A stretch of DNA of 59,997 nucleotides, filler included, from Hausera hauseri (taxonomy: Eukaryota), in assembly GCA_046269625.1 (NCBI GenBank). It is 10 parts of 10 records of this genome, joined end to end, with 100 filler letters (N's around TTAATTAATTAA, not from the genome) between each part and the next. Parts side by side here need not be neighbours in the genome. Positions count along the whole stretch, not along the records: positions 17,246 to 26,540 come from JBJURY010409921.1; 9 more parts are not named here. One strand, 5' to 3'. Positions 3,104 to 49,424 of the stretch are shown here, piece by piece (within the stretch, counting starts at the first letter, position 1; every line of letters starts with the position of its first letter). Under the pieces are notes generated by a model that did not search any database, was not told the DNA's origin, and saw only the letters and a program-made list of their open reading frames with translations. The translations under genes and the position numbers were made by a program.

Positions 3104-4084
3104 ATTGACGATCTAGATAGTATACGGGAGCAAAGAAAAAAATTGACTGGTCGACAAGTACACGATTTTAAGAAAAACACCATGTAAAAAAAGAAATTTT
3201 GATACAACCAAATCAAGTCTGATAATATCCGAACCAACTCCAAATAACAATGGTACTATACCAAGCAATTCGATATCATTACATGACGACGACAACTCTG
3301 TCACAAATACTAGTATGCTTATGTATGAAAGTTCTTTCCTTTCACTAACTCCGCCAAAAATAACCATTTCTCCCGATCCCTCCAGGACCCTGTCACCACT
3401 CAAATCGCAAAGTGGAGATGAATCGCCAAACGTACCGACTTTGAAGTTTTCTAGTGAAAATCCCAAAGAAAGAAGAGTTTTGAACTCAATTTGCGAACTT
3501 AACTCTTTTGGTTTTATTTATGTTTGTCAATGCTGGTCCAATTATTATTTGGTACAGATGTAGTTGTAGATCATTTCTCAATATTCTTTCAACACTTCAT
3601 CTTGATATATCAAATTCGGTAGTCATTGTTCTGTCCTTTTTGATGTTTACTAAGTAAAAAAAAATTGTTTTAATCAGTTTTTTGATATGTACAAGATTGT
3701 ATAAGAATTGAATAAATTGATTTTAATGATCTTTCGGTTGACATTTTATTTGGGATTTAATCTACTATTTCTCTTGTTATAGTTTTTTGAGCTATTATTT
3801 TTGGAATTTCCATATATCTATACCGCATATATATTAGTCAGATCAAATACTACAACAAAATGGTGTCAGAAATTCTAGAAATTCAACATATTGACATATT
3901 CAAAGTTTACAAAATGCCTATAAAAAATTTTGTAACAAAGATTCCCTGAAACTATGATGAATTTCGATAATTTATAAGGGAGATATGCAATCTCATCGAT
4001 TTTAGATTTTGTAAAAACAAAGATGGCAGTCCATTTTGCTTCCTAACGGTCAGTCAAGACGATCAAATTAAATGTGCGGAAGAT

Positions 4085-5728
4085 TTGATTAATTTAATCA
4101 CAGGAAAGATGCTTGGTGGTGTAACGTTGCGTCCACGCGTTCTGGTCGATAAAGTGGTTGGCAATTCAAATTATATCGTTTTTCCTGAATCTGAAACTGT
4201 CGATGATATTGTCAACACAACTCATTTCGAAAAGGGGTTTTATTTCGTCCAATTGTACACGGAACGTGGTTTGAATAATAATGTGGCGTTGTTTCTCAGC
4301 GATTTGTATCGGGATTATGAATTGAAACGGTTGCCATCGTTGACTTTTGGTGAAATCGGGACCGATCAATTGTTTGCCACGTTTTATTTCGATGATCAGT
4401 TTCATCGTGTTCGGCTTTTGGATAAATCGGACTCATATCGGGTCAAAGTCATGTTCATCGACTATGGTAACGAAGAATGGGTCACCGTTGATGATATCTA
4501 TCCAATCAGCAATAAGCTCCGGGAAATCCCTCCACTGGCTCACAAATGCACCATTGACGGGGTCGTTATCGTTGATCCGGAGCGTCACCAAATTGCGCCA
4601 ACAGACGTTCTCCACAAAAACATGAAAGCCAGTCTGGTAAATGAATACGATGCGCAGCTGAAATCCGATCGTGTTGTAGCATTGGATTACACAGATTTCG
4701 CGTCGATCAGCTATCGGAAATATCTTGTCGGCGAAGGAATTGCCGTGCCGATACGATGCGAGAAAGTGACGAATAGCGCGGCTGTTGAACAAATTTCGAC
4801 ATTTCCCGATGAACTCGTCAATGGACATTCGTCGCCTCAATGCAGAGCAGTAATTATGCACATGGAAAGTCTGACCGAATTCTATTTGCAACCGGATTTC
4901 GTTAGTAATAAGGCGAATTTGGATAAGGTATGTCAGTTGATTGATTCGGTAATGGAACATGACAGAATCCATTTGGAATATTCCCGTACAGATATTCGTT
5001 ATTTAAGTCAATTCACGGAAGATTGCAATTGGTATCGTTGCGAGGTTGTCAAGGACAGATTCAGAAATGCTTACTGCATTGTGCGGTACATCGATTATGG
5101 GAATAGTGAACAGAAGACTGAGTTGTCTAGTCTGAAACCGCTGACAAAGGAATGGAATGCGGATGCTGATGCATTGGAAAAAATTGCGCCGTGTGCTGTC
5201 AGACGTAAATTTCACGATGGGATGATGAGTCAGTTGCATGAACGTGTTGTGAACACTGCGGCATCTGATGGAAAAGTTGAGGAGTCTATGCAGTACCGAC
5301 TGACAAATATCGAGTCATCAGAACAACTTCGGTTCCGTTTGGTAGACACACAGGATGAATCACGGAAATCGCGGCTGACTGCTATTGCCGAATGGATTGA
5401 ACACGGTAGTCAGGGTGAAGGGCAAGTTTTGGCATTAGCGAAAGATGAATTGTACGGTGCTACGGTGGTCGATGGTCAACAGCAAATGCGGTGTCGTATG
5501 ATGTGCCGCAATATAAACAAAGTTGTCGTGTAAGATATCGACACCGGTGTCTACCATATTGTCCCGCTGAAATCCCTTTTTTATCTGCCTGACGATATTT
5601 TTAAGATCGCCCTATTGGCATTCCACGAGAGATTGGTGCTAAAGAACATCCGTGTGTCGAAGAGAGGCCGAATTGAGAATGGAGAAGTTGCTATCAATAA
5701 AAGATGCCCGTCTATTGTGGTGCGGTGA
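4085..5728 (+). CDS. Intronless multi-Tudor-domain protein (extended Tudor, TDRD-like); in-frame TAA at 5531-5533 interrupts a third degenerate Tudor domain
   Basis: Tudor 1: FDDQFHRVRLL...VKVMFIDYGNEEWV...LREIPPLAHKC. Tudor 2: FTEDCNWYRCEV...VRYIDYGNSE. After the stop: *DIDTGVYHIVPLKSLFYLPDDIFKIALLA. Confidence 0.85.
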
Positions 5729-6765: not shown

Positions 6766-7120
6766 TCAGGCATTGGTAGGGCAACAACTCATCTGGTGAA
6801 ATAGTCAATAAAGACTAAAATATATTTGTTTCCGTTCCGTGTTAACGGTAATGGGCCCGTTATATCCATTGCGGTAAATTCGAATTGCGCTGCAGGCTTG
6901 TCCCATACCTTTAATGGTGCTTTAAACATTGATCCTGTGTTTTCCGGGTAGCACACAACTTGCAGCTCTCGCACCATTCTTGTACATTTTTCGTTATCGT
7001 TGACCAAAAGTATTTTTGTTTTAATTTGTTTAGTGTCTTATTGGCCTATTGATGTCAACTAAGTAATCCATTATGATACTGAGTCAGTAAAACTGCTCTA
7101 TTTTTCTTAGGAATTACTAA
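6766..7120 (-). pseudogene. Element A integrase N-terminal part
   Basis: HHCC region YHNGLLS*H...KYFWS...WCESCKLC, then AMDITGPLPLTRNGNKYILVFIDYFTR. Confidence 0.92.
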
Positions 7121-7369
7121 CGCAGGTCCGTTTTGACTAACAAAATATAGAAATCCTTCTTTTTCCTCGTAAGCTTCGCTGAATCGAGCCAGGTGACGGG
7201 TTAGCTCTCTGTCAGCTGGTATGATTTTGTCTTCTATGTACTTTCTAATGGCCCTTATTTCTGCATCCTCATTTTGATTTGCCTTAATTTTCTCGACTGA
7301 TCCATCTATACCCCATACGGCTGCGACTACTGCCTTTGTTTCTGATTTATCGGGTATTCTCGATAAGTA

Positions 7370-8600
7370 GTCGGCGTTGGCATTTCGCGATCCCGGCTTA
7401 TATTGGAAATTTAATGTATATGGTTGTAACTTTAGAGCACATCATAGTAGTTTGCTGTTTGGATTTTCATGCTGCTTTAGTCATTGGAGCGGTCTTTGAT
7501 CCGTATAGATCAAGCGCGGTTTATTTTCGCTAATATACGGTGAAAATACTTCTAAGACAAATATCATTGCTAATAGCTCTTTTTCTATTACAGTGTATTT
7601 CTTTTGATGCTTATTAAGTTTTCGTGACACATAGGCTACTGGGTGTTCCTTTCCATCTTTACCCTTCTGTGATAATACGGCTTCTAATCCATAATTATAT
7701 GCGTCTGTTGCCAAAATAAATGGTTTGGTCATGTCTGGATAGATTAATATAGGAGCCGTTAATAATCTGTCTTTTAGATATTCGAAACCTTTTTGACATT
7801 CGCTTGTCCAGATAACTTTATCTAAATCTTCACGTAATAATTCATACAAAAGTTTCGCAATTTTTCTAAAATCCTTTATGAATCTTCGGTAATAGTTTGC
7901 TAAACCTAGAAATTGACGTAATTCTCTAACTGTACTTGGCTTGGGAAAATCTCGTATTTTTCCCAAGAGCTTATCCTGAGGTTTTACACCATTCCTATCT
8001 ACTTTATGTCCGAGGAAATCTACATCTGCTTGAGCAAATGAACACTTCTTGGGATTTATCTTTAGACCCATTATTTCGCATCTATCAAAGAGATCCTGTA
8101 GATCCTTTAAATGTTGTTGAAAATCCGTTGATGCTATTATTACGTCATCTATATATACCATGGCATGTGGAGCATCCAACAGTAAGAGTTCTGTTCCTCT
8201 TTGAAATGTGGGTGGTCCATTCTTTAATCCAAATGGCATCCTGTTAAATTCCCACAATCCTTCTCCGATCGAGAAAGCTGTCTTCGGTTTATCCTCCTCT
8301 TTAACCTCCACTTGCCAATAACCCTTTTGTAGATCGATGGTTGTGAATATGGTCGATCCGTGTAATTTGTCTAGTATCTCGTCAATTCTTGGTAGAATAT
8401 ATGTATCCGTCTCTGTTATTTCATTCAAGGCTCTATAGTCTATACAAAATCTCATAGTACCGTATTTCTTTTTAACCATCACTACGGGCGCTGTCCATGG
8501 GGAACAACTTGTTCGAATTATCTTATTTTCTCTCATCTCTTTTATTACTTTACGAGCTTCCTGTTTCTTATCATATGCTAACCGATACGGTCTTTTCTTA
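7370..8600 (-). pseudogene. pol: Element A reverse transcriptase and RNase H
   Basis: SPWTAPVVMVKKK, RFCIDYRALN, DLQKGYWQV, MPFGLKNGPPTFQR, YIDD, FILATDA, EKELLA. Confidence 0.97.
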
Positions 8601-9218
8601 ATTGGCTTGCCTTGCCGTCCTTCAACTTAATGACATGCTGTATTACTTTCATTGTGCCTAGATCATAGTCAGTTTGTGCAAATCGACTAGCATTCTTTTC
8701 TAATAATTCGATTAACATCTCCTTCTCTTCCTTACTTACAATTTTGCATTTTTAACCTCTCGTTCCAATCAATATTCGTGGTTTTATTTCCTTTGTCTTC
8801 GTCTGGTTTCGTTTTCAGTTTTTTTGTAATCATCTTTTCTATTTTATCTACGTCCGATATTACTGAGCAGGTTTCTTCTTTTATTATTTCTTCAGTTATT
8901 GTTACTTTTTCCAAACTAGTATCCTTCCGTAATCGTTTTTCTTTATTTGTTGTATTACAAATTCGTAAGTGGATTTTTCCATCTCTTACCTTATCTACAT
9001 GAGGGGCGATTAACACTTCGTATTTTTCCATGACTTGCGGGAATGGTTTAAAATAAATTATTTCCGTCAACGTTTGACTCTATTTTTGGGATTATTATCT
9101 CAGATCTTGGTGGGATTATAACGTCTTTTATTAGTGAGACTATTCCTTCGTTATGATCTTCGTTGAATATCTTAAGTTGACATGTTCTTATATCTATATA
9201 AGCATTTTCCAATTGATT

Positions 9219-9857
9219 TCATAGATCACATCCGATTAAAATTTCATTGGTTAGATTATCTGCTATTCTAATGGTATGTTTCAAAATTTGTTCACCAATC
9301 TTAATTTTGGCATCTAATACCATCTTGATTTCTTCTTCTGTACCAAATTCTCGAACATTTACTAATGTAGTAGTTGGTCTTCGTAACTTTCTTTTCAACT
9401 CCTTTGGTAATTGATTTCTTCCCATTATCGTGGTTGTGGATTTTGTATCTAGTAAAGCCATCATTGGATATCCATTCACCTCTATTTCTATTTCTGATCT
9501 TATGGGTGATTGTTGATCATTTTTATCATCAACAGTGTACGTAGTTTCATGTTTATAAGGGGTTAAGTTTTTATCAAAATTTTGTTTCATCTGCTGAACT
9601 TGTTGTGTAGGGTATAATTCTGCATTTACTACATATCGTGGAGCTGAAGGATTTATTAACTGTTGTTCATTATACAACTGTCCATGATATTCATCCGCAG
9701 GATCTAGACGGGGTAAATCCGTTATTAACTTCTGTCTATACTTCGATTTCCGTGTCTTTAGTACCAATTGTTTGATACTGGGTACTCGTTTCTTTGCTTT
9801 CATCTGAGTATATTCAGCATCATCATCATCAGTTATATTATACGGGGATTCTTTCAT
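9219..9857 (-). pseudogene. Element A linker plus aspartic protease
   Basis: IEVNGYPMMALLDTKSTTTIM (DTG-like motif, G>K) ... ILIGCDL. Confidence 0.8.
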
Positions 9858-9884
9858 GTCTTTTCTCTGTAGTATCTTTTTCTT

Positions 9885-11570
9885 CTATCGTGCATCATGG
9901 CTTGCTAAGAAACAACTTGCCACTGCCGGGATTACCGTTATTAGAATTTTCCATGAGCATCCCACTGCTGCATGTATCCCGTATGCTTTACCAAGTGCCG
10001 TAAATACTGTCCGTATGGCGCTAATAATAAAGTATATAGCTAGAAAGCCGAAGCTGCTTGTCCGAAATATAGGAGCTTACCCCACATCTTTTCCACAACG
10101 TTTTTTGTTACCTTCCTTAGGTAATCCATACCCATAAGATTTTCCCATTGTGGTGATCCTTCGCCATCCCACATTACTCTCTGTGTTAGTTCAGTTATTA
10201 CTCGTTGTTTTTGCTGTGGAAACAACAACATACGTCCATAGTCCTCTAAATTTTGTTGTGTGTAAATTCCTCCCTGCGATATTCCTGTTTATGGTTCGAA
10301 TTTTTGATTCCTTTACAGATTAATCAAACTTAACATCTCTGATTTGGGCACTGGTTCTCTTTTGGGCATTCTAATCAATTTTTTGTTATCGATCTTAAAC
10401 ATGGGCGACATATTAAAGGTACAATTGTATAATGGGGTAGGTTTCACAATAATATCTAATAATATTCTAGTTACTGGCATCACATATCTCGGTTTCTTAC
10501 GGTAAATCACAGGTAACTCCATTTTTCATTCTTCTGTTGGTCTAACTGATACTTCTACCTTTGGCATTCTATTGTTATCAATACCTCGCCCATCATTCTG
10601 CCAATGATTCCGTCACCAAAGGTCATTACAGGTGCTACCATATCCGGATTTGTTATTACTAATGCCATTTGATTGCGCATTATTTCGTAATTCAGCTTGC
10701 ATTTATTCATTATTATTTCTCGATATAATCCTCTGATTTCTTTCCTTACATAATTGATTAAAAAATCAATCTTATTGTCGAAATATTTTGTCAACTTTAT
10801 ATCTTCCTTATCTATTTTGGTTTTTATAGCCGGTATTTCTTTTCTCGATAAAAAGATGTTCTTATAGTTAGTTTTTGATATTTCCTCATTGCATTTAGTT
10901 GCTAGTCCCGTGATTTTGAATCGCATCATCTCTTCCGGATTTTCCGAATATACAATTGTAGCTACTTCTGTCATCTTGACTTCCTTTGTTCCTTCTTTAT
11001 ATGTCGCTGTCTCTTTTTCTGCCGTTTTTCCTACTGTCTTGTTAAACTTTCCTTCCTTTAATAGCGTTAACTGACATTTACTGGCAGTGGTTTCCCATGT
11101 CATTTTCGATTCTCCAGTATCACATTCACTATTATCATATTCGCATTCGTTCATAGTCGTCATCAATTTTATCTGTGAATCGAATAATACTTCGTATTCC
11201 TTCAACTGAATCTGGTAATCCTCAATGGCTACCGTTCTCGGTGCAATAGTGCCTCCTACATCGTAATCCACTCCTTTACAGGTGCCTTCTATTGTTTTAT
11301 CTACTCTTCCAGCTCTAAATATTCCGGTATATTTTATTCGATTTCGAACTGCCAGTATATGTTCGTTTTGTATTGTTATGATACCAATCTTAAAGGCATC
11401 TTGGCATTCCGATCGTGATATAATGATTGGTTCGAAAGGTGTCGTGGGCTCGATTATGGCTGTGTTTCCCGAATAATAGGCACAATTAAACAAGAAAAAT
11501 GATCTTTCTACGTAACACTCCCTGACTTTTGCTTTTACGAATTCAGACTTTCTACCATATAAATACTACT
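9885..11570 (-). pseudogene. Element A chuvirus-like envelope glycoprotein with C-terminal transmembrane region
   Basis: ECYVERSFFLFNCAYYSG, GTCKGVDY, LYREIIMNKCKLNYEIMRNQMALVITNPD, GEVLITIEC, ELPVIY...PVTRIL, GIYTQQNLEDYGRMLLFP, KMWGKLLYFGQAASAF(fs)LAIYFIISAIRTVF...VGCSWKIL. These motifs are collinear with those I recognise in chuvirus-type glycoproteins. Confidence 0.85.
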
Positions 11571-12217
11571 TTCCTTTAGTATTTGTTGTTGTCTTTTATA
11601 CTCCTTTAGTTCTATTTCTAATTGCTTCCTTGTGCGTGGTGATAACGTATCGTTTGTATAGTTAACACTTTCCTTCTTTTTGTCTTCTTTCTTGACTTCA
11701 GGTTCGCTAGCACTATCCTCCGTTTCGTATTCCTTACCGGAGGATTTATCTGACGTGGCTGATATATAATCTTTCTTCTGTTGTTTCTTCTTGTTACTTG
11801 ATTTTGAGGACTCTCCTCTTCGTGATCTACATGACTTGGCTATATGTCCATATTTATTACAGTTAAAACATTACAACCTTCCTTCAGGATCTATGTTGGG
11901 TAAGGATCTTCCGTCCTTTTTGGATTTCTTCTTGTAGCATTCCTTTTCCCCATCGTTCCGTAAATTAAATCGGACTTTCTTTTCCACATCTGACTCAGCT
12001 TCAGTGGCTGATGTTTATGAGGGGCTTCTGTTTCTTTCATAACGTTGATATCGTTGAGTACTATTGTTTCTTCTCTTATCATAACCGTTATTATTACGTT
12101 TAGACTTATTCCACCTATACAGTTCCGCATCTCGTTCGCCTTTTCGTGCCTTTCTTATTGCTTCTTGGAACGTAGGCGGGTCTTGCTTGTGAGATTATCG
12201 TCCTTAATCTTTCTTCT
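11537..12217 (-). pseudogene. gag: Element A gag C-terminus with CCHC zinc knuckle
   Basis: Hand translation: DPPTFQEAIRKARKGE (capsid C-terminal helix) ... GRL*CFNCNKYGHIAKSCRSRR (CX2CX4HX4C at about 11829-11870). Confidence 0.85.
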
Positions 12218-16530: not shown

Positions 16531-17429
16531 TTTGAGATGCAGAGTGTTATTGGCATGTGTATTCTCAGTGTTTCCGAAAATGTAAAACAGACAGTGGTTG
16601 GAGTTCAGCATAGAATCTCTTTCATTTTCATACATGGCCATGCGGAGGTCAGGGGAAATGAATGAGCAGACAGACTGACCAGTACTGCAGGCAGCAGAGT
16701 CATGGACTGATCTGATATCATGAATGTCCTCCACGAGACTGGTCGGAAAGAAAATTCTTCAATAAGTCAGAATTTCCTCTCCCTCATGATTGCGTGAACT
16801 TTGAATGGAGCAACGTGGGGCCAGATGCAAGCGGCTCGCTGGCAGCAGCAGAAATTTGATGAATGAAAATAGAATTAGAACTGTTCGATCATTGTCTTTT
16901 GGTTTTGTGGGAATGGACTATAGGGCCCGTGGTCTTGTTCTTAGTGATGAGGATTTGCCGACTAAGTTACAGATTTACTATGCATTTTATCATGTTTCTT
17001 TTTTCAACATTTTCTGTTAGACCTGAGGTATAAGCTTGTTAAAATTATTTCAGTCATTTTAATATTATTTCTTGAACAGAGTGTCAGCCATGTCCCACTG
17101 GTTGGAAGCTGTTCCAGAAAAAGTGCTACTTGTTTTATAATGAAANNNNNNNNNNNNNNNNNNNNNNNNNNNNNNNNNNNNNNNNNNNNTTAATTAATTA
17201 ANNNNNNNNNNNNNNNNNNNNNNNNNNNNNNNNNNNNNNNNNNNNATGCTTTTTTTCTGGGTTATTTTTCGCCCTTATACCACTTTTCCGTATTCCGTAT
17301 GTGTCTCCTAGTGTAGATTCGTCACCCCACCATTGGGCCTGTTTTCTCGGAATGTAAAAACCAATTAGCGATAGTGCTAAAACTATTTGAATGTACGATA
17401 TTGGTGTGACAATTATTGAAGAAGTTTTT

Positions 17430-18500
17430 ATTTTGTGTCGGCATAAATTATAACCTTTATTAGGCCGGATTTCCGTTTTAACAACTCTTTGTACTGACAC
17501 GACTTCTTCTTTTCCGTTTTTGTTGATGTACACCGTAGTTAGTGTGGGCCTCGTAATTTTGTATGACCCTCTGCCGGTACGGATCCATTTTAATGAGGTG
17601 CCCTTCTTGTCTACTAAATAATGTACATAAACCCAATTTCCTGGTTCCAAATCATGAGGTTTCGCTTTCTTATCATATTGCTTTTTAAACTGCTCCTGAT
17701 ATTTCCCAACTCTTTTGTAATCGCGTCTGCAATACTTCTGCAAAATTTTGTTCTAAATCTTCGGGATTGAGCGGGTATGGCGTCATTCCTAAATCTGTGG
17801 GTAACACAGCTTCACGTCTATACATCATGAAAAATGGTGTAAATCCTGTTGTTGGATGTGGGGTGGTATTAATAGCAAATTGAGTTTTATCTAAAAATTC
17901 GTCCAAATTTTTTTGGTCCTTATCTACTACTGTTGATAATATGCGTATGACAGTTGCATTCATTTTTTCAACCATTCCATTACACTGAGGGTGATATGTG
18001 GTAGTTGTTAACCGTTCAATTTCAAATATCTTTGTGATCTTCTCAAATAGTTCACTTGTAAAATTTCTTCCTCGATCTGTCAATATTTGAACTGAAGGCC
18101 CGTATTGGAAAGTAATTCTTACTCCAGCTTCTGCTGAAGTTTTTGCCTTTTGATCATTATCGCTATTAATTCGACAAAATGAGTTAATCGATCAATACAA
18201 TTTAGGATATACTTATTGTTTTTGTGGGTCGTAGGAAGAAGTCCTACGATATCCATCGACATGGCTTGCATAGGCCTATCGGCCACATTAATTGGTTTTA
18301 GTTCAGCTATATAATTTTTCATTTTCTTTTGTTTAGTTGCACAAACTTCACGAGCTTTTACACAATTCTTTACATCGATATAGATACTGGGCCAAAAGTA
18401 TTTATTCAATATTCTTTCTAATGTTTTCTTCCAGGACATGTGGCACGCTAAATATGAATCATGTTTCGACATTAGCACTTTGGTTCGTAGACCCTTTGGA
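17430..18500 (-). pseudogene. Element B integrase (HHCC, DDE core, GPY/F-like module)
   Basis: KHDSYLACH...KYFWP, SMDIVG, TDRGRNF, YHPQCNGMVE, TTGFTPF, KKQYDKK...GNWVYV...GSYKI. Confidence 0.95.
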
Positions 18501-18789
18501 ATAACTATCAGTTTCCTTCCTTTTCGTTCGTAATATAAAATATCCTCATTGCTATTGTCACTTAAGATGCAGTATTTATGTCCATGTCTGTGTAAATTTT
18601 TCTTCAATTGTCGTCCCTTTGGTATGATATCCTTCTTAGCAAATTCTATAATCTGCTGAATAACTTTATCCTTTCTTTGTTTTGTGCAGATTTTAATTGC
18701 TTTATCCATCGTTAAGGCTCGTTGGCGATCTATTATTTCTTCAAGTTGACTTTTCTTCATAACCGTGATTGCGCTTGTTTTGGTCTTTA

Positions 18790-20096
18790 AACTTGATAGT
18801 GCATCAGCATCTACATGTTTATTTCCTGGTTTATACTGGAATTCGATATCGAATCTAGAGATTTCTTCGATCCATCTGTTAAGTCTGCATTTCGGGTTAT
18901 GTGCTCCGTCATTTAGGTCATGACGGCTTTGTGATTAGTGACAATAATAATTTTCTGCCCATATACGTAAACGTTGAAGTATCGAAGTGCTTCTTTTACG
19001 TCTAGAGTTTCTAATTCGGTTACGGAATAATTTTTCTCGGCCTTCTTCAAGGAACGTTCTCCATAAGCAATTGGGTGTTCTAGTTCTTCATCTTCCCTTT
19101 TCTGCGCTAATTCATATCAAATGCCTTCTTTACTGGCGTCTGTCTTGATTATAAAAGGTAAGTTAAAGTCTGGGTACCGTAAAACAGGTTTGCTTGTTAA
19201 TATCTTCTTCATGTTGTCGAAGGCTTTTTGTTCGACATCAGTCCGTTTCCATTTTATTCCCTTTTTAAGTAGACGATATAAGGGTGCATTAACTTTTAAA
19301 TTATCTGGCACATAGGAGGCAAAATATCCTCAGAGTCCTAGCCAGTTCTTTAACTCTTTTTGGTTTTGTGGTTCCATGCAATTTGGTATTTTGTTTAATA
19401 ACGATTTATCTGGTCTCAATCCTCCTTCTCCAACTATATGGCCAAGGTAGGATAGTGCGTTTTGAGCCCATTTGCATTTTTTGGATTTAATTTCAATCCG
19501 GCCTGCTCCAGTCTCATTAATGTGTGTTGAATCTCCTTTAAATGTTCCTCTTCTGTCTTTGACGCTATCATTACGTCGTCTACATATGCAATGGCACGGT
19601 CCAGTCCCATTAGCATCTTATTCATTATTTTTGTAAAAATGGCTGGCTTAGTAGTGATACCGAACGGCGTGACGTTAAATTCATACACGCCATCGTGTGT
19701 TTTAAATGCCGTTTTATATCGATCCTCATCCGCTATCTCTAATTGACAATATCCAGATTGTAAGCCCAGAGTATTGAACCATTTTTCTCCCAAAAGTCTG
19801 TGCAAAGCCTCCTTTACTGATGGTAAGGGAAAGGAATCCTTCATTATAAGGTTATTTAATGGTCTGTAGTCAATACATATTCGATGTTTTGTAGTACCTT
19901 TCTTTTTAACCATGAGGATCGGTGAATACCAGGATCTGTAACTGGGTTTAATTATATCGGCCTTAAGCATCCGTTTGACTTCCTTTGTTATCTCTGCTTT
20001 CAGTGACTGTGGCGGGGCATACAATTTCGGTATCTTTTGATATTTAAGATCTATTTCTTCATTTGAACCGGGCTTTTTCTTAAGTGGAATAGTCAA
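18790..20096 (-). pseudogene. pol: Element B reverse transcriptase and RNase H
   Basis: SPILMVKKK, RICIDYRPLN, KTAFKT, YVDD, PFIIKTDASKEGI. Confidence 0.95.
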
Positions 20097-20619
20097 TCTT
20101 AATGCTTTAGCCCGACCGATATCCTCGTCGTCTTTAGCGATAACTGATTTTTAAATGCACAACAGTTCATAAAATCGACAGTAAGATTCAGGAGAAAATT
20201 TATTTTCTACATGAGGTGGAAATTGGGCATACTTCTAAGGCTTTTCTTCAATAGTTTTCGACGACACTCTATAGGTATCTCCTAGAGTAGTATAAGCATA
20301 AAGCTTTACGGGTTCCGTACGTTATTTGCTATCCTAATTGGTATACGACCGAAGTGTACTCTTGTCAGTACGTTACTGAGCGTTATATTTGGATTTAATG
20401 TCTCCTTTGGTTCAAAATATACCGGTTGATCGTTATATTGTTGAACTTGAGCATAGATTGTTGTCTCTATTCTTGGTGGAATCTAGTGGTATCCACACTT
20501 CTCCAAACTTCCTATCTTTAGAGTTCCTTATACCTTTATTTTGTCTAATTTCTATTAATTTTTCAGTATGCAAGTCGATTGCTATAATTGGTAACCTTTT
20601 CAGTAGATCACACCCTAAA

Positions 20620-20937
20620 ACTGTCGTCGGTTAGTTGTTCAATAACTGCAAATTCATGACAGAAAAACTGTCCAACTACTTGAACTTATGAATTCCATTT
20701 AAATATGGGTTTGGACATTTGACCAAAAGCTCCTGTACTTCCGGGATCTTTTGTAGACGGTGGGTATAATTGTCTGCTGAGCGTTTGAGGTATTGAATCA
20801 TTTTTAATGTAAGACATATAAGACCCTGTATCGATTAATGCATAAACTTCCCAATCTTTAATAACGATTTTGGCGAAAGGTCTTCCTTCTATTGCTGTTC
20901 CAAAACAGTTTGATGCTATTTTTGGGCGTTTAGTCAA
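20620..20937 (-). pseudogene. Element B aspartic protease
   Basis: RPFAKIVIKDWEVYALIDTGSYMSYI ... VLGCDLL. Confidence 0.9.
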
Positions 20938-21561
20938 CGATATTTCATGTCCATTAATTGGAATCTATGGAGAAGATACTATGTTCTCAGCCAATTGCTT
21001 TACTTCTCCGTTTGGGTATAATTCATTGTTTTCAATGTTTAATTCTTCAGCTTCATGAGTACTGGTTAATGGTTCTCGGTTGTTAGTGTGCGGTTCTATG
21101 TTCCATAAAATTCTTAACATTGAATTTTCCCAGACAGGCGACTTAGTCTCTATATTACAAGGTTCACTCTGGGAGTAAAACATCCTGGGATCATCCCCGG
21201 ACTGTCGGTAACACATTTTCCGTAAGACTCCATAACGTTTTGTTCCATCATAAGGGTTTTCGACATTAATTGTCCTTTTAAAGATTTCCGTCTAATAGGA
21301 ACTCATTGATTGTTTGTCACAGTCTTCATAGACTGGAGCGGTAGAAGATAACATAGGCAATAGTGCTTTAATGACAGAGTACGTCTTGTGTCTGTTTATT
21401 CTTGAAAGTACTTCTCCTCCCTTAGGATCGTCATCATTTGAATCATTTCTTCGCATACTAGGTCTTGTAAATTTCCGCTTGTACAAGAGCATAGGCCTTC
21501 CTTGTCGTTTACGATTATAATAACCGACATCGCGTTCTATGGCCGATTTCCATCTATTTTC

Positions 21562-23392
21562 CTAGTATGCTTTTAAAAACTTTCCAAAGGGCGTTATGAT
21601 TGCAGTCAGTATTTTACATAAAAATCCGGTGAATGTAAATATTTCATACCCATATATTACTGCTTGGATGACTGCTGTAATCATTTATATCAGAAAATAT
21701 ATTGCTAAGAATCTGGATGCGGCTTGACCAAAAATCAAAAATCTTCCCCAAATTTTGTAAAGTATTTATGTGGTTACTCGTTGATAATGGTTTAGGCCAA
21801 GTAAGGATTCCCATTTAGCCTGATATCATGTATCGTCTACTACTGAGGCCATGGCTCGGTTTAATTAGTGTGTTCGTTGCCGCGGAAAAGCGAGGAAATG
21901 TCTGGAGGCTTCGATTTCCTTAGGCCTGTATATGCCTTTCGACGAGGTATCTCGGAATTTGTCATCCGTAATTACTTTCACAAGATTTGTTCCCGTTAAT
22001 TTAATTGGGGAGGTAGTAATAACTCCATTTGTCAAACTAACCCAGTCTGTTTCACTACGTCTAAACATGGGTTCCCCTAAGCTTGCCTTACAATCTTTTA
22101 GAATGGTTGGTTGGGTTGCATTATCCAATAACACTCTCGTCAGCGGTGTAGCTAACTTGGGAGTATTCTGATAAATAACATAAAGTTTTTGAATTGCAAC
22201 GTTTTTCTTCTATGTTTATGGGTACATCCCTCTTTTCACATTCGTAAGTTAATAGTACTTCACCCGTGACCCGACTGAAAATTCCTTCTCTCATAGGGAT
22301 TATTGGAGAAGCCAACTCTGGGTTGGCGTATATAAAGGCCAATTTTGTCCTCATAATCTCGGTATCTAATTTACAGTAATTCGTTATTATTTTGTGATAT
22401 AATTACATTATTCCGACTTGTCTTTTGTAATAAAAATAATGATATCTGTTCTTGAAGTAATCCTCAACTCGGATATCCTGTGTTTCCAACTTATAGGTCT
22501 TCACACTTATCTCGGTTTCGGCGATAAAGAATGCTTCATAGTTAGTAGTGAACATTACTACGTCACAACGGGAAATCATCTCCTTTTTAATAAATTTCAG
22601 TCTATGCTGATCCGAGACTAATATAATGGATGTAGGGTGTTCCGATACGTCTTCGAGTGTCCTTGAGTTTGTATTCGATTTATCCACATATCGCTTTTCG
22701 GTAGTTTCAGTTTCTTAATTTTAATAAAATTACACTTTCTTCAAGAGGGAGGTTCCCATATTATAACAGAACTTCTAAAAGCACAACTTCCGTCTTGTAA
22801 ATGACACTTTTGATTCTCGGTGTATAACTTGGTGACACTATGGAACATTACTTCTGTGATCGCATCTCTGATTCGCAGAAGTTTACGGCCACCACCTTTG
22901 CTTGTAATCCTTTTCCGGTGTCGTATTCCGCCCCGTTACAATGTCCGCTATGCATATCTAACCTTCCGACCACTACTTTGCATGCCCTAATTATTTTTCA
23001 TGGTTGCATTTCTAATTGCATACTGTCCCATTCTATTCTTCCAGTTTCTTGCCCTGTTTGTAGTGCTGGCTTTCAAAGTTCATTGGGATTAGAGAAGTTG
23101 TTGGTTTGATTATTGAGGAATGTCCGTGTACCAACCCGCAGTGAAAAATGCTACAAAATCGTATCAGCATACATTCCATTCCATCTAACGATATTAATTC
23201 TTGTTGTTGGTACACGAAGTAATTTTTCTCTCTTGCTTCCAACTTGTGCGGTATGGCATCTTCGCACACTTCTAAATCTATTAGGAAATATCTTTTCCAT
23301 AGTTTGAACTTATCGCAATCGTAGACAGTAACAGTGCCTATGTGCTTTATTAGCATCATCAAGGTGAGGAGGTTAATTAACCAACTTAATTC
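21562..23392 (-). pseudogene. Element B chuvirus-like envelope glycoprotein, essentially full length, with internal signal peptide
   Basis: WLINLLTLMMLIKHIGT-VTVYDC...LIDLEVC, ECMLIRFCSIFHCG, GHCNGAEY, LYHKIITNYCKLDTEIMRTKLAFIYANPE, GEVLLTYEC, GIYRPKEIEASRHFLAFP, KIWGRFLIFGQAASRFLAIYFLI. Aligns along its length with the element A glycoprotein. Confidence 0.87.
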
Positions 23393-26300
23393 ACTCTTCC
23401 AGTGGCTCGTATCCGTTGTTGTCAAATTATGCAACATATCGTCGAGTGTATTACTATTACTGGTCCGCTTGTCTTTTTCCTTGTCAAATAGTCTTGACCA
23501 AGCTACTTCGCGGGGCAGCTTCCTCGCCACTCTTCGTGCTAAGGTTATAACTCTATTGATTTCATTCTCTCGATTAGGGTTTATTTTGATAGCTAAATAC
23601 AGTAATACTTTCCTTAATACTTTATTCGTGTTTTCTGCAATGATCTTTTCGATTACCGATTCATCGGTTAGGTTACTTTTCGGTAGTTTAAAATGCAAAC
23701 TTCTCATTATTCTAGCTGCATTAAATATGACCTTTTTCTTATCACCTAATGTGTCGCCTCGAAGCTTGAATAATTTACAATTCGTATTAAATTCTTCATT
23801 AACTCGCTTAATTCTTCAGTATCTGTGCTGAAAGTCGGAATTGACATTTGTCTCAATTCTCTAATCAATTCTCCATTATAATGGACTAAATCTCGTGTCT
23901 TCTTAGGCCTACCGACTGGGCGTTTCTGTCTTGGGACATTGGCCATCACTTTACTCAGTGGAACTAAATTCTTGTCGTATTGTTCCTTATCCTCATCCGT
24001 TTGTAAATACTCGAAATACATTGCAGCGTCTCGTACTCCCATGATTTGTCCTACGCATCATTCTGTCTTGGCCTTACGCATGGCTTCTTTTTTAGTTTGC
24101 TCTTTGGCTACTATTGACATTATCCGACTTGTTTCGTCGAGAATAATTCCGACGTCTATTAACTGTCCTAGATCATCTAGTATTCTACCTCTAAAATAGA
24201 ATCTATAGTTTAGCTCGTTTGTTCCGCCATTATTTAATAACCATTCTCTAACGTCCCTTAAATAGGAATATGTAGTTAACTCACATTCTTTTTCGTCCAT
24301 CCACTCGGACGATATCATTACTTTCATCACTACCGCCGGTTTAACCCTTAATATTTTAGCGTATTCCCTGATCAAAAGTTTCGGCACCGTGCTATAAATT
24401 GTGTTCTCACTAGATAATTTAGTTAAGGTCGGAATAAGTTGTCTTAACCTACTTTCTGTAATGTTCACGTTAATTAATTTAATTAAATCTTTTTCAGTTA
24501 GCGCCAAATCCAGGAGCATCTCCACATTGAATCTCCTGTCCTGCGGACACGTTTCTATCTCATTTAATTGCACTGGAGTCACGGGTTTTTCGGCCATTTC
24601 TACCAATAAGTAGGCTACCCATACATTTCATTTATGACTTTTGAGTCTGGATCAATTGCATCCGACAATTTCTTTACGAACTCAGATTCTTGAAAACTGA
24701 GATGTTGGTCATTTCTTATCTTTATCAACTCGGTATGGAAATTTTGATCTGATCCGGCCATCCATTCTTGTGGTTTATGCAAAAATCTTATTACGTCTAT
24801 TAACGTAGCTTGGTCTTCCGGACAAATGTCTAGGGTCTTAATATCTTGAGCCGAGGTCTCATCAATAGGTTTATCTGTTATATGTTGAACTTCTTCTAGT
24901 CGGACATTCCTCAATCTTGGGTAAAATTTGCAAGTCATATTTCGCCTCTCCGTAAAGTTCGTCTCTTCGATCATCTTATAGATCTCTTCCAATAACGTTG
25001 CGTCTTGCTTCTTCTTCTTAAATTAAGTTGTCTTAATACATCAAATCTCGTTCGGATGTCTATTTCTGCTATTATCGTATATAGGTTACGTGCGCTTTCT
25101 TCTAACTGTTTCTTTACAGAGGTCTCGCTTCCTGGAAATTCTTTCTTTCAATCTTCCGCTATTTTGCCTAATCACATTACTAATTCGGACCATTCTGACA
25201 ACTGATTGGCGATTATTGGCTTTGTCGTTATAGCCTTATCTAGCATCTTATATGCATCATTTAACTCGTCATCTGGCCCTTTTATAAAGTTCATAATCCG
25301 GCTGACATAACTAAATTCATCTTTATATTCATCAAATTCTGCGATACAAGCTCTTACTACATATTCAGTTTCTTCGTTGTTTGGAGACAATCCAATTTCT
25401 CAAACTACAAATCTGTGCTCGCTTTTCATTTTCTATTTTGATCCGATTCTCTAGGTTTGTATATTGTTTGGGTACAACAAATGCAATTTTTATCATTTCC
25501 ATTAAAGGAGGAGTATCTATTGCGTCTATACCCAATATTTCTAAATCGACATTACTTCGACTATTAACCGGTTTTTCTCTGAGTCGATTAATCATTGTGC
25601 AACGAATTTCATCCATCGTACGTTCTAAATTCCGGACTACCCTCTTCAGTTTTGGATTTATTCCTAAATTAGCCAAGAGTGTTTTAGCTTTAGCGACTTT
25701 TATATCAATGCTATCTTCGTTTTTGTTCCATCCTTCCGAAAATTCGATTCTGCTTTTACTCCAGGATTCTAATTCATGCTTTCATTTTAACAGTGTTTTA
25801 GGTGATACCTCTTCAGGTTGTCCTAAGTCGATTGCTTCCTCTAGCTTCCCTTCACTGCATAGTTTTAAGCTTTTATATAGCCTCTCAGCAAACTGCTGCT
25901 CTTTCCCGGATATATCTATTTCTTCGCTAATCTGCTTAAGCCTTTCTAGATTTCGCTGTAATATTTCTGGGTCGTGGCATCTAATTTTTATTTTCTTTAG
26001 CTCATCGGCGTTTCTCCATGAACGTTGGACTTTTCACTTTCTTGGGTCAAAATCATCAATATTTACCGTTTCTTCCTCACTAATGGGGAGTGGGCAAACT
26101 TCATTAATTTCATTAATCGATTCTATAGACTCCGCTGTCCCAACAGGCGTGAGTAATCCAATTTTAGGTACATTCAACCTATGGTCCGCGTCGCCTTTTA
26201 CCGCTATGTTCGGACTTTCCGTTTCTTCAGTTTTCTCTCTAGTTATTTGTGAACGTGAACGACTTCTACGTTTCGTCTTAAATGAAGGGCTACTGCCTCT

Positions 26301-26540
26301 ATTTTTCGCAATTTTAAGTATTAATGGTTCCATAAATTCCTTTTCTGCTGTATCGTCCTCAGTGGAATTATCTACTTTTTCGCCCGTGAACTCAGGCTCT
26401 GCATCTAAGTCGACTTCTGTCGAAGTTCCTGTTTAATCAGATATCTTATTACTTGTCGGAACACTCTTTTTTCGTGTCATATCAATTCGCTTGGGTGCTA
26501 TCGCATGCTCATATTCAGTTTCTTGTTCTGCTAAACCATG
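23393..26540 (-). pseudogene. Element B long ORF1 (about 1000 codons, fragmented): basic/SR segment, charged helical region, AT-hook-like motif, gag-like C-terminus
   Basis: Consecutive minus-strand ORFs 26034-26333, 25365-25676, 25172-25390, 24615-24992, 24058-24606, 23746-24042 and 23033-23707. KRPVGRPKK at 23899-23925. Gag identity is inferred from position and a MSIPTFS segment. Confidence 0.55.
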
Positions 26541-26640: not shown

Positions 26641-27133
26641 TAATATCAGATTCCGCATCGGATGAAAGGTCCAATTTTTCACCAATTATAACATGTCCAC
26701 CTAGCCGTAGACGTTTTTAATATACATTGACTTATTAAAAACCCCATACCTGAGAATCAGCTATAGATTTAAACTACATTTCCATGGGATTTCGATGCAC
26801 TAGTTTCATATGGTAGTTTGAAAAATAAGCATAAACCGAGAAATTTTGTCGCGAATAATTTCGAAGAGTATATGGGTTATTGTGTTGGATTGTCCGCAAA
26901 CGACGTGAAATAGGTTACGTTTCTTGTCGGGTAAAGTAAATACCACTGTTCTGATGTATTGTCATTGGTGAAAATGTAAATGTGAATTACGTCAGAGCCA
27001 CTTCCCAACCCCCGTGGCGTAAATCGACCGGTTGGTCCAAGTGCATGGCAAACTATTTAGCGGTATTGTCATTGTCGTCATGTTATGATAATGATCTGTT
27101 ACTATCAAGTACCAAGTAAATGTTGCTGCTCAT
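26641..27133 (-). pseudogene. Maverick/Polinton minor capsid (penton-like) protein N-terminus, absent from the ORF track
   Basis: MSSNIYLVLDSNRS...DNTAK*FAMHLDQPVDLRHGGWEVALT*F matches the pattern FYxxLPSNxS...NTxxxFxxxLxxPxxLxGxWEVxL. Its ATG overlaps the integrase TGA (ATGA). Confidence 0.75.
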
Positions 27134-28148
27134 TGAATCTGTGATGCAAAAATGCTACTCGGTGCAGTGTATCCGTGCCACTTGACGAGATATTGTTTAT
27201 TCGAACCTTTTTCACGTGAACGTAGAATTTCCCGAATAAAATATACATAGGGTTTCTCGGGCAGTACCCGCAGTTCCTGTTCGTAGAATATATCGCGTAT
27301 TTCCTCACCGTTTTTTTCCTCTGAAACATACATGACAGGTGTTTGTTTTGTTTTGAATGCCAAAATGCTAAAAACCTCGTCGCTCCAGTTCTGATTGAAA
27401 TTCTTAATGAATGCCGTCGTGCTTATTTTCGAAATACGCACGTAAGCACCGATTTTATATTTTGGACGTTTAATTGCTCGTTGTCGGTTTTGATAAAGCC
27501 TTATGTCCAAATCATCGATAAAGTCAACCGGGCGCATTTCGTTGATTCCACGGTGTGTCGAGTGATTGTATGCATGAATAATATCCGGCAATATATCTAC
27601 CCAGTGTTTTTTGCCCTGCTTCGTAAAGAATCTGTTTAGGCGACCGCACAATGTTCGATTAAATCGTTCAACGAGTACAGTCTTGTATTGGGAAAACATC
27701 GAGTAGTGTATTATGCCTAACCTTTTCAAGACCGCTGCAACATGGGTGTTGTAGAATTCCTTACCCAAATCCGTTTGTAAATGCTTCGGCTGTTGTTGTT
27801 GTTGTTGCATCAGTGTCTGAACAGCGTCGGCAATCTATTTACCGAATTTAGATTTCACAGCAATTGCACGTGCAAAAAAACTAAACACATCAATACATGT
27901 CAGCACGTACCGATACCCATCATTGATGCTGTCGTACGGAATCATTTCCATCAGATCCATTTACCATACGTTATTTACACCAGCAAAACGGTATGCACGA
28001 GTTAGAAACTGCCTTCTTATCGGTTTGTTTAGGCTCTATGCTAATTGTTTTCCGAGCCAACGTTGGGTCTGTTGCGAGTCTGTTTGACAGTCTTTGCCAG
28101 TTTGTCGACGTCAGTATACCTGACGGGATGACGCGGATCGAACCACAT
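27130..28148 (-). pseudogene. Maverick/Polinton retroviral-like integrase with C-terminal chromodomain
   Basis: MWFDPRHP..DVDKL, W*MDLMEM...GYRYVLTCIDVFS, LQTDLGKEF, VERFNRTL, YNHSTHRGI, YKIGAYVRISK, NWSDEVF, FYEQEL, QYLVKWHGY. Confidence 0.93.
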
Positions 28149-47264: not shown

Positions 47265-48568
47265 GCAGTGAACAGAACCTGCTCCAGCTACATGATGTTG
47301 TCAACTTGTTACAGGTCAGATAAACTACAAACCTATATAAAGAGATGAAAGCCTAAGCCAATCACAAACAGGTTGAGTAATTGCAAACAGGTTGTGCAAT
47401 CAGCCCATACCAAGAAGCTCCTGTGACTAATGTCCACAACCAGCAAACCTCAACAACACACAATGCTAAAAACAGAAAAGTTAGAAAAACTCTTTAACAA
47501 AACAAAAATCACAGAAAGCAGCTCAATGTCAATTCTTTATTAAGTCTTTTAGCGTTAACAGTCTGTAAAAAGTGGATTCAGAATGCCTCCCACAGAAATT
47601 TATCTCTATCAGGAGGAATAACCTCTATACCTTGAAATTTCAAGGAGCAAATGTCACCAGCTGTCATAAAATGTTTGGCAACAGAAGATCTTTCATCTTT
47701 ACTACAATTTTTGGTTTTTATGTTTCTGAAAACCTGATTTTTAATTCTCTTGTAGTTTTACCTATCTACGCCAGGCCACAACGACATTTCAATAAATACA
47801 CAACATATTTTGTTTGGCAAGAAAATTCTGTGCAAAATAGAGAGCTTTTTACCTGTGTGAGGACACCGCCACATTTCATCTAGTGACCTTACTTTAGGCC
47901 ACAGTTTTGAGAGGCCTCCCATTTTTCACAACAAGAGGGCCAAGAACTTTGAGGACTTCTTAGTTACAGCAGACTGCTATACCCCTCTTCCACATCTCTT
48001 GCCAAAATTCTCACCTGGCAATTTTCCTTGCATAAGTTGTGCTCAGAGGAGTGCTATGATTAAAGGTAATGTGTTTTTACATCCTCACACAAAAATCTGG
48101 TTTACAGAACATAAAAGTTTGTACTTTAGATGAGAGATGTCCTGTTGCCAAACATTTCATGACAGCTGGTGGCATTTGCTCCTTGAAATTTCAACGTATA
48201 GAGGTTGTTCCTCCTCTCAAGGGAGGAGGTAATGCAGATAAATTTCTGCTTAAAAGGGAAGCATTCTGGATCCACTTTTTACAGACTGTTAACCTGAAGG
48301 ACCTAATGAAGAACTGACATTGAACTGCTTTCTGTGATTTTTGGTTTGCTAATGGATTTTTGAACTTCTGTTTTTTGCATTATCTGTTGTTGAGGTTTGC
48401 TGGTTGTGCTTGTTAACCACGGGTGCTCCTTTTTTGGTCTGATTAACTGTTTGTGATTGCCCAACCTGTTTGTGATTGGCTTAGGCTTTCACTTCTTTAT
48501 ATAAGTTTGCAGTTGCCTGATCTGTAACAAGTTGACACCGGTTTGTTGATGAAACCCGTTCTGTTCAC
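47265..48568 (+). mobile_element. Penelope-like element (Neptune-type) 3' fragment with an inverted copy of its 3' end (47265-47700 is the reverse complement of about 48120-48568)
   Basis: DFLVTAD...GNFPCISCAQRSAMIKG..FLHPHT zinc-linker and GIY-YIG C-terminus PVAKHF...IEVV...GGG...LLKREAFWIHFLQT. About 400-bp inverted duplication. Confidence 0.88.
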
Positions 48569-49424
48569 TAAATGGGAGTCAGATTTAAATTGCAAATATG
48601 ATGACAAAAACTGGAGTAGATTGCTAAATTCATCTCAAACAATATTAATATCAACAAAGCATAGACAAATTCAATTTAATATTTTGCACCGCATATATTA
48701 TACCCCATACAGGTTGAACAAACTGAATGCCAACATCACTGACAAACGTCAAAGGTGTAAAATGTGTGTAGGGGATCTTCTTCATGTGCTTTGGAGTTGT
48801 ATACACTTGCAAACCTACTGGAATAATGTCATTCAGATAACATCAGCAGTTTGTGAGTTTTCTTTAGATGCTGACCCCAAGATTTGGATACTTGGAGATG
48901 TTATAACTTTGAAATTGTATCCTTGCAAGAAATACTTTGTTTTGTTAGCATCATCTGCAGAAAAAAAGTGTATACTTAAAAATTGGAAATCTATGGACCC
49001 TCCAAACCAGAAACATTGGATCAACGAACTGTTGTCATACTGTACTCCTGAAAAAAATTCTCACTTGATACAGGGGTCATTGGTTACGTTCAACCAAATT
49101 TGGACTCCGTTTCTGGACCTTCTACCCAGATTGGACCAGAGAGACTGATATGTATTGATGTTTAATGTCTTATTTAAATTCTTTAATTCTTATTCAATAT
49201 TTTTGTTGAATTTTTCTTTTTTTCTCTCTCGACTCTGGCTTTTCAAAAATATGTGATGTGTTAATTATATTATTGTATATGTTTTTACATGGAGAGAGTG
49301 GGTGGGGTGGGTGGGTTTTATTTTTGAAGTGTTTTCAAAAAAAAACCAGAAGGTAATATTGTAATCTTTATGTAGATTTTGTATGATTTAACCTTCTGAA
49401 TAAATATATCTATACAAAAAAAAA
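48569..49424 (+). mobile_element. 5'-truncated fish-type L1/Tx1 LINE (ORF2 C-terminus, 3' UTR, AATAAA, poly-A)
   Basis: KWESDL...QFNILHRIYYTPYRL...RCKMCVGDLLHVLWSC..LQTYW...ILKNWKS..PP...W; A9 tail at 49416-49424. Confidence 0.9.

Follow-up and report, generated by a model that had tools for sequence, protein, structure and literature searches.

The closest described counterparts of the element analyzed here are the Burro/GYPSM1 elements of planarians, giant gypsy-like LTR retrotransposons of 25-30 kb. For these, the review PMC6431247, which is our sole source for the work of Grohme 2018 and Jurka 2007 on Burro, gives an Env that shares one frame with gag on one side and pol on the other, preceded by a BCL2 motif and followed by the protease. 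The same account lists SUMO-like, MATH, BIR and ankyrin domains as cargo and a dUTPase-like segment between PR and RT (PMC6431247). Errantiviruses with a GAG-ENV-POL layout and an HSV/gB-type Env are described in Nematoda, Bryozoa and Platyhelminthes (Chary and Hayashi, PMC13524379), and, according to that paper, the nematode NERVs (Sacco et al. 2022, J Gen Virol) likewise have Env before pol. The main text of PMC13524379 contains neither "polyprotein" nor "splic" and thus does not deal with processing. Another point of reference is the Atlas virus of Ancylostoma ceylanicum, in which Env forms part of a single Gag-Pol-Env polyprotein whose coding sequence has neither stops nor introns; it differs from the element described below in belonging to the Belpaoviridae, in having Env last and in using a phlebovirus-like class II fusogen (PMC9094657). 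The portions of PMC13238120 and PMC8532177 available to us hold nothing further on Env, and in the literature searched, to which Sacco 2022 and Grohme 2018 did not belong, we found no test of signal-peptidase processing in these elements.

The locus is a contig of Hausera hauseri (positions 17246-26540, JBJURY010409921.1) within a window of 59,997 nucleotides, the whole stretch of DNA that was analyzed, which consists of short contigs joined by N-spacers. From its sequence, we identify the minus strand of this contig as one decayed Ty3/gypsy element with the order cargo-Env-PR-RT-RNase H-IN. Its placement in Ty3/gypsy comes from the pol order PR-RT-RNase H-IN with gypsy-type domains, recovered by Pfam and tblastn as a piece of a retroviral-type aspartyl protease at 20689..20964 (Pfam RVP E=0.006), a frameshifted reverse transcriptase and RNase H at 18930..20150 (Pfam RVT_1 E=1e-25; tblastn) and a frameshifted integrase at 17486..18934 (Pfam Integrase_H2C2 E=1.5e-13, rve; tblastn). 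Its errantivirus character is seen in a gB/chuvirus-type Env upstream of pol (PF24664, tblastn to intact relatives) and in an ectodomain bounded by a predicted signal peptide and a predicted transmembrane segment (hydropathy, -3/-1 analysis). The ectodomain occupies 21750..23332, is interrupted by several stops and frame changes, and is matched by PF24664 in two pieces below the cutoff and by intact relatives in tblastn at E values of 1e-21 to 1e-52. It is followed at 21655..21741 by the predicted transmembrane anchor, which has a stop inside; full-length relatives display one clear hydrophobic peak here, at the glycoprotein end and ahead of the protease region. On the other side of the junction, coding remnants without a Gag match run from 23816 to the contig end at 26540 and likely represent a cargo region of ~2.7 kb, for which there was no usable match to Pfam, PDB or the relatives. 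Gag itself likely lies past the contig end or has diverged beyond detection. No long repeat that could be an LTR was found inside the contig, where coding remnants reach both ends. By eye only, the stretch near 24250-24100 has a ubiquitin-like look and that near 20500-20300 a dUTPase-like look. Judged by these many breaks, this copy cannot produce the polyprotein.

As far as the review describes Burro, the likeness extends to an Env homologous to mononegavirus fusion glycoproteins, to cargo between Gag and Env, likely for the contig copy, and to the existence of decayed copies. In Burro, Env also has a BCL2-like motif ahead of it and the protease behind it in the same frame; of this arrangement, relatives of the contig copy show the single frame from gag to pol (P0010 and P0018) and the Bcl-2-like segment before Env (three relatives), the latter being probable for the contig copy too. 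Size, LTRs, Gag, MATH, BIR and ankyrin lie outside the view of the 9.3-kb contig. The contig copy differs from Burro in being broken throughout by stops and frame changes. With the GAG-ENV-POL errantiviruses, it shares a Ty3/gypsy pol, a gB-type Env upstream of pol and an ectodomain with a signal peptide before it and a transmembrane segment after it (PMC13524379), and its glycoprotein start resembles, by eye, the Schmidtea entries (VYQESD..EC) in supplement 2 of that paper, which lists intact elements, unlike the one in the contig. This resemblance points to a flatworm as the likely host. In the accounts available, the layout is already published (PMC6431247, PMC13524379), and the locus is a decayed element of that published design. 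Env ahead of pol is also the point of likeness to the nematode NERVs. These reportedly carry a continuous gag-env-pro-pol ORF and are said to be restricted to nematodes.

The original prediction had proposed that one uninterrupted ORF of 224 aa at 23033..23707 runs from a gag-like region through an internal signal peptide into the glycoprotein, so that the latter is made from a capsid-signal-glycoprotein polyprotein. The ORF is there on the minus strand, without a stop, and, past MLHNL (starting at 23437), it does run through the hydrophobic stretch (WLINLL at 23383) into VTVYDC at 23332, which is indeed the glycoprotein start, as it is covered by all 19 phmmer matches and as PF24664 is present in 16/16 of those scanned. 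The stop-free frame is longer than its Met suggests, spanning 23033..23815 on the minus strand (260 aa, of which 224 aa follow the Met at 23707), and ranks second by length among the stop-free runs on that strand of the contig. At the base composition of the contig, the chance of a stop-free run is p ~2e-4 for 110 codons and p ~2e-9 for 260 codons, and a frame so far beyond chance argues that 23815-23033 is retained coding sequence. Translation probably does not begin at the Met at 23707, since sequence ahead of that Met (EFNTN near 23797) still aligns with the relatives. A frame change near 23.8 kb interrupts the frame, and the stop that closes it at 23033 falls within the glycoprotein; as its sequence reads, the frame is no separate gene, only a piece of a longer polyprotein frame.

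That longer frame is seen in the relatives, which were collected with phmmer against 1.84 billion representatives (E<=0.001) and comprise 19 matches of 25-38% identity. Pfam was run on 16 of the 19, all of which contain PF24664 (Monjiviricetes_fusion); half of these (8/16) also show a downstream protease, one of them below the Pfam cutoff, and 4/16 have RT, RNase H and integrase within the same ORF. The hydrophobic core begins more than 100 residues into one ORF in 11/19 relatives (positions 126-871), and a CCHC knuckle is found upstream in the same ORF in 5/19. In two of them (P0010 and P0018), a stop-free ORF leads from the knuckle through Env to the integrase, and the N-terminus of P0001 is a capsid matching dArc2 (E=0.007). 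The remaining 8/19 matches, which are short (92-304 aa), start at the signal or close to it and may represent env ORFs that stand alone or copies that have decayed or been cut. At the level of the wider family, the predicted polyprotein arrangement holds. As the relatives are only 25-38% identical, the continuity established is that of the clade, as distinct from intact copies of the contig element's own family. This family is present at high copy number in two sequencing runs: a diverged copy (run X1, record 5) spans 23158-23560 with 62 substitutions and no gap, and another (X2, record 11) has 8 gap letters over 23300-23586. Among the 40 of 2941 substitution rows and 12 of 45 indel rows listed, the stop at 24058-24060 is common to another copy in one row, which is too thin to rely on. 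Word-index protein searches among longer proteins returned nothing for the contig frame or the glycoprotein of a sister element in the window, the same search with the N-terminal region of P0003 returned only P0003 itself, and no related loci were found among metagenome and viral contigs.

The label "gag-like" given to the helical segment ahead of the signal did not survive comparison with a profile of capsid plus CCHC built from P0001, P0016 and P0018. With this profile, the best score for Gag in contig 17246-26540 was E=1.5, versus 1.6e-8 in the sister element (12188-11820) that served as positive control; the contig has no CCHC motif, and the sole one across all six frames of the window belongs to the sister element. 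Instead, the segment (23490..23800, minus strand) is collinear with P0003 in an alignment that continues into the glycoprotein, and likely is a diverged Bcl-2-like domain. It is joined to the signal by a polar linker (23390..23489, minus strand) that contains the Met of MLHNL (23437), and the distance from the last conserved Trp to the YDC motif is 59 aa in the contig copy and 52-80 aa in three relatives. Pfam Bcl-2 is matched in three of the four aligned segments (P0001, P0003 and P0004; best E=2.3e-5, below the curated cutoff), the fourth, that of the contig copy itself, having no such match. Against PDB, P0004 recovers Bcl-xL at E=0.01, and stretches resembling BH1 and BH2 are present. For a model of the P0001 segment (pLDDT 57.5), all Foldseek matches listed are members of the Bcl-2 family (E 0.055-0.22, none listed at E<=0.001), and in VIA its top 16 matches are Bcl-2 folds (Z 6.7-7.9, rmsd 4.1-5.0, 119-128 residues), a Z<8 for a helical bundle not being decisive by itself. 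From these profile and model comparisons, we take the collinear segment in the three relatives to be Bcl-2-like. The contig copy scores 6.8 bits on the profile of the relatives' segments, the best among the real frames of the window and a value reached by 4/1000 shuffles; in a sequence search with the four-row segment profile, the top two matches are designed coiled coils, and the predicted fold of the contig frame (pLDDT 36.7), which shows the helical segment, is uninformative. Altogether, we consider it probable that the segment of the contig copy is Bcl-2-like too. That it is instead a true Gag capsid fused directly to the signal would agree with its predicted helical nature and with P0016 and P0018, where nothing between Gag and the signal matches Bcl-2. 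However, the contig lacks a Gag profile match and a CCHC although the control element was detected, the capsid of Gag-bearing relatives sits several hundred residues upstream of the signal, and the collinear segment is Bcl-2-like in three relatives, which makes a capsid at this position highly improbable.

Next to the linker, we predict an internal signal peptide at 23333..23389 on the minus strand from its hydropathy and from the conservation of positions -3 and -1 in relatives. Its hydrophobic core (23389-23348) is followed by a short c-region ending in I-G-T, with cleavage predicted before the V at 23332. Small residues at -3 and -1 are the pattern of a signal-peptidase site. When 18 relatives were anchored on the [AV][YF]DC motif (P0017, which begins at the motif, being omitted), small residues occurred at -3 in 18/18 and at -1 in 17/18, versus only 7/18 at -2 and a background of 25%, the significance of the -3/-1 pattern being overstated, as the choice of column was made with the sequences already in view and the aligned rows are related. 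Columns -12 to -9 are hydrophobic in these 18 relatives (mean KD 2.7-3.2), and the I-G-T before V-T-V-Y-D-C in the contig copy fits the site pattern. The net charge on the n-side is -1 in the contig copy and positive in just 10/18 relatives. The segment might alternatively be an uncleaved signal-anchor, which would leave the glycoprotein tethered at both ends until the protease of the element or another protease acts. Bcl-2 proteins do end in a membrane anchor, which speaks for this reading. So does the description of some gB-type ectodomains as flanked by two transmembrane domains in place of a signal peptide and one (PMC13524379). Yet the hydrophobic core is short, with a 19-residue KD mean of 1.66 in the contig copy, and the -3/-1 pattern is retained in 17/18 relatives, and we regard an uncleaved anchor as improbable next to a cleaved internal signal.

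The position of Met residues bears on a different possibility, namely that Env mostly stems from an RNA that is spliced or starts internally, with the hydrophobic segment as an ordinary N-terminal signal (e.g., from the Met at 23437) and the genomic frame continuous all the same. Such a Met lies 19 residues ahead of the core in the contig copy and within 22 residues in 5/11 long relatives, 8/19 matches begin at or near the signal, and Drosophila errantiviruses and retroviruses as a rule express env from a spliced RNA. On the other hand, in 6/11 long relatives the 45 residues ahead of the core contain no Met, and, as read from the alignment, a start Met before the signal is not conserved. Moreover, frame continuity has been retained across 25-38% identity, and pyrimidines make up at most 53% of the 15 bases ahead of each of the 12 yAG sites in 23830-23383, a weak test in an AT-rich genome. 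On balance, a separate env RNA appears unlikely to be the main source of the glycoprotein, more probable all the same than an uncleaved anchor.

We therefore favor, with a probability of about 75%, a reading in which the junction belongs to a decayed Ty3/gypsy copy whose intact relatives have one long frame and in which the glycoprotein is likely freed by the host signal peptidase. The long frame of the relatives would comprise Gag, cargo, a likely Bcl-2-like domain, the predicted signal, the gB-type glycoprotein and its anchor, protease, RT, RNase H and integrase. Gag and cargo would be translated in the cytosol, upon which the hydrophobic segment would enter the ER co-translationally with its N-side cytosolic, and signal peptidase would cleave before V-T-V-Y-D-C. 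The ectodomain would then fold in the lumen, with the C-terminal glycoprotein anchor acting as a stop-transfer that places Pol back in the cytosol, and the element's own protease would process Gag and Pol. In the structural polyproteins of flaviviruses, hepaciviruses and alphaviruses, the cytosolic protein that comes first finishes with an internal signal peptide, at which the envelope protein starts. The likeness to these is one of analogy and not of homology, as here cargo, and not a capsid, adjoins the signal and a retroviral Pol follows. Thus, of the proposed capsid-signal-glycoprotein polyprotein, what stands is a glycoprotein that sits within a long ORF and is preceded there by an internal signal-like segment, with Gag upstream in relatives; what falls is the capsid as the signal's neighbor, which is most likely a Bcl-2-like cargo domain. 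The parallel with the alphavirus structural polyprotein is limited as well, since the chain in relatives goes on into PR-RT-RNase H-IN (P0010 and P0018) and, with Pol included, is not structural-only.

More tentatively, and at clearly lower odds than the cleavage itself, the cleaved signal might remain in the ER, where it would serve the Bcl-2-like domain as a tail anchor and thereby tie the Gag-cargo precursor to the budding membrane. Under this speculative extension, the membrane-anchored viral Bcl-2 might delay host cell death, and a second internal signal after the integrase might serve a further membrane protein.

By itself, the locus matters little, being one decayed copy of a published design. 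What is gained is, first, a correction, in that the neighbor of the signal is likely Bcl-2-like cargo and not a capsid, and second, a predicted cleavage site conserved across the clade, by which the processing route becomes testable. If that route is true, capsid, envelope and enzymes of these elements would come from one membrane-threaded chain, unlike in retroviruses with a spliced env RNA; if the tail-anchor reading also held, the three would be delivered 1:1:1 from that single chain.

The Ty3/gypsy element that occupies the contig at 17246-26540 belongs to a highly repetitive family. From sequencing run X1, 30,692 contig pieces were placed on this contig, and 1,916 from run X2; most of these pieces show less than 95% likeness to it, with transitions predominating among the differences. 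Another, separate element built on this plan lies elsewhere in the window (6766-12217, minus strand); it comprises Gag, in which a CCHC knuckle is located at 11870, and then glycoprotein, PR, RT and IN. Its alignment to P0001, one of the protein relatives of the 23815-23033 frame, jumps from residue 302 to residue 847 near 11565, so this sister element lacks the cargo, the signal and the beginning of the glycoprotein. The gap is probably an internal deletion, though it may instead have arisen from the copying of a spliced RNA.

The whole window is built of short contigs with an N44-TTAATTAATTAA-N44 spacer at each join; therefore, sequences on either side of a spacer are not true neighbors. The window also includes pieces of a cytochrome P450 (576-1133), a Tudor domain (3971-5533) and an integrase-chromodomain (27130-27834), as well as a piece at 48528-49148 that, by eye, looks like a vertebrate LINE.

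Within the likely cargo region upstream in the main element (23900-24250, minus strand), we found an AT-hook-like motif, VGRPKK (Pfam E=0.08), which is also featured by P0001. The sequence upstream of this motif has a ubiquitin/SUMO-like look by eye, a resemblance for which database searches gave no support. Among the relatives, P0002, P0003, P0008, P0011 and P0020 each display several tandem aspartyl-protease-like domains, reaching a maximum of six such Pfam stretches in P0020, which additionally contains ankyrin and C2H2 motifs. Downstream of the integrase, the element has a hydrophobic stretch (17372-17416, minus strand; KD15 2.16), and post-integrase hydrophobic peaks also occur in P0008, P0009, P0010 and P0020. 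Such stretches are consistent with a second membrane protein within the same polyprotein.
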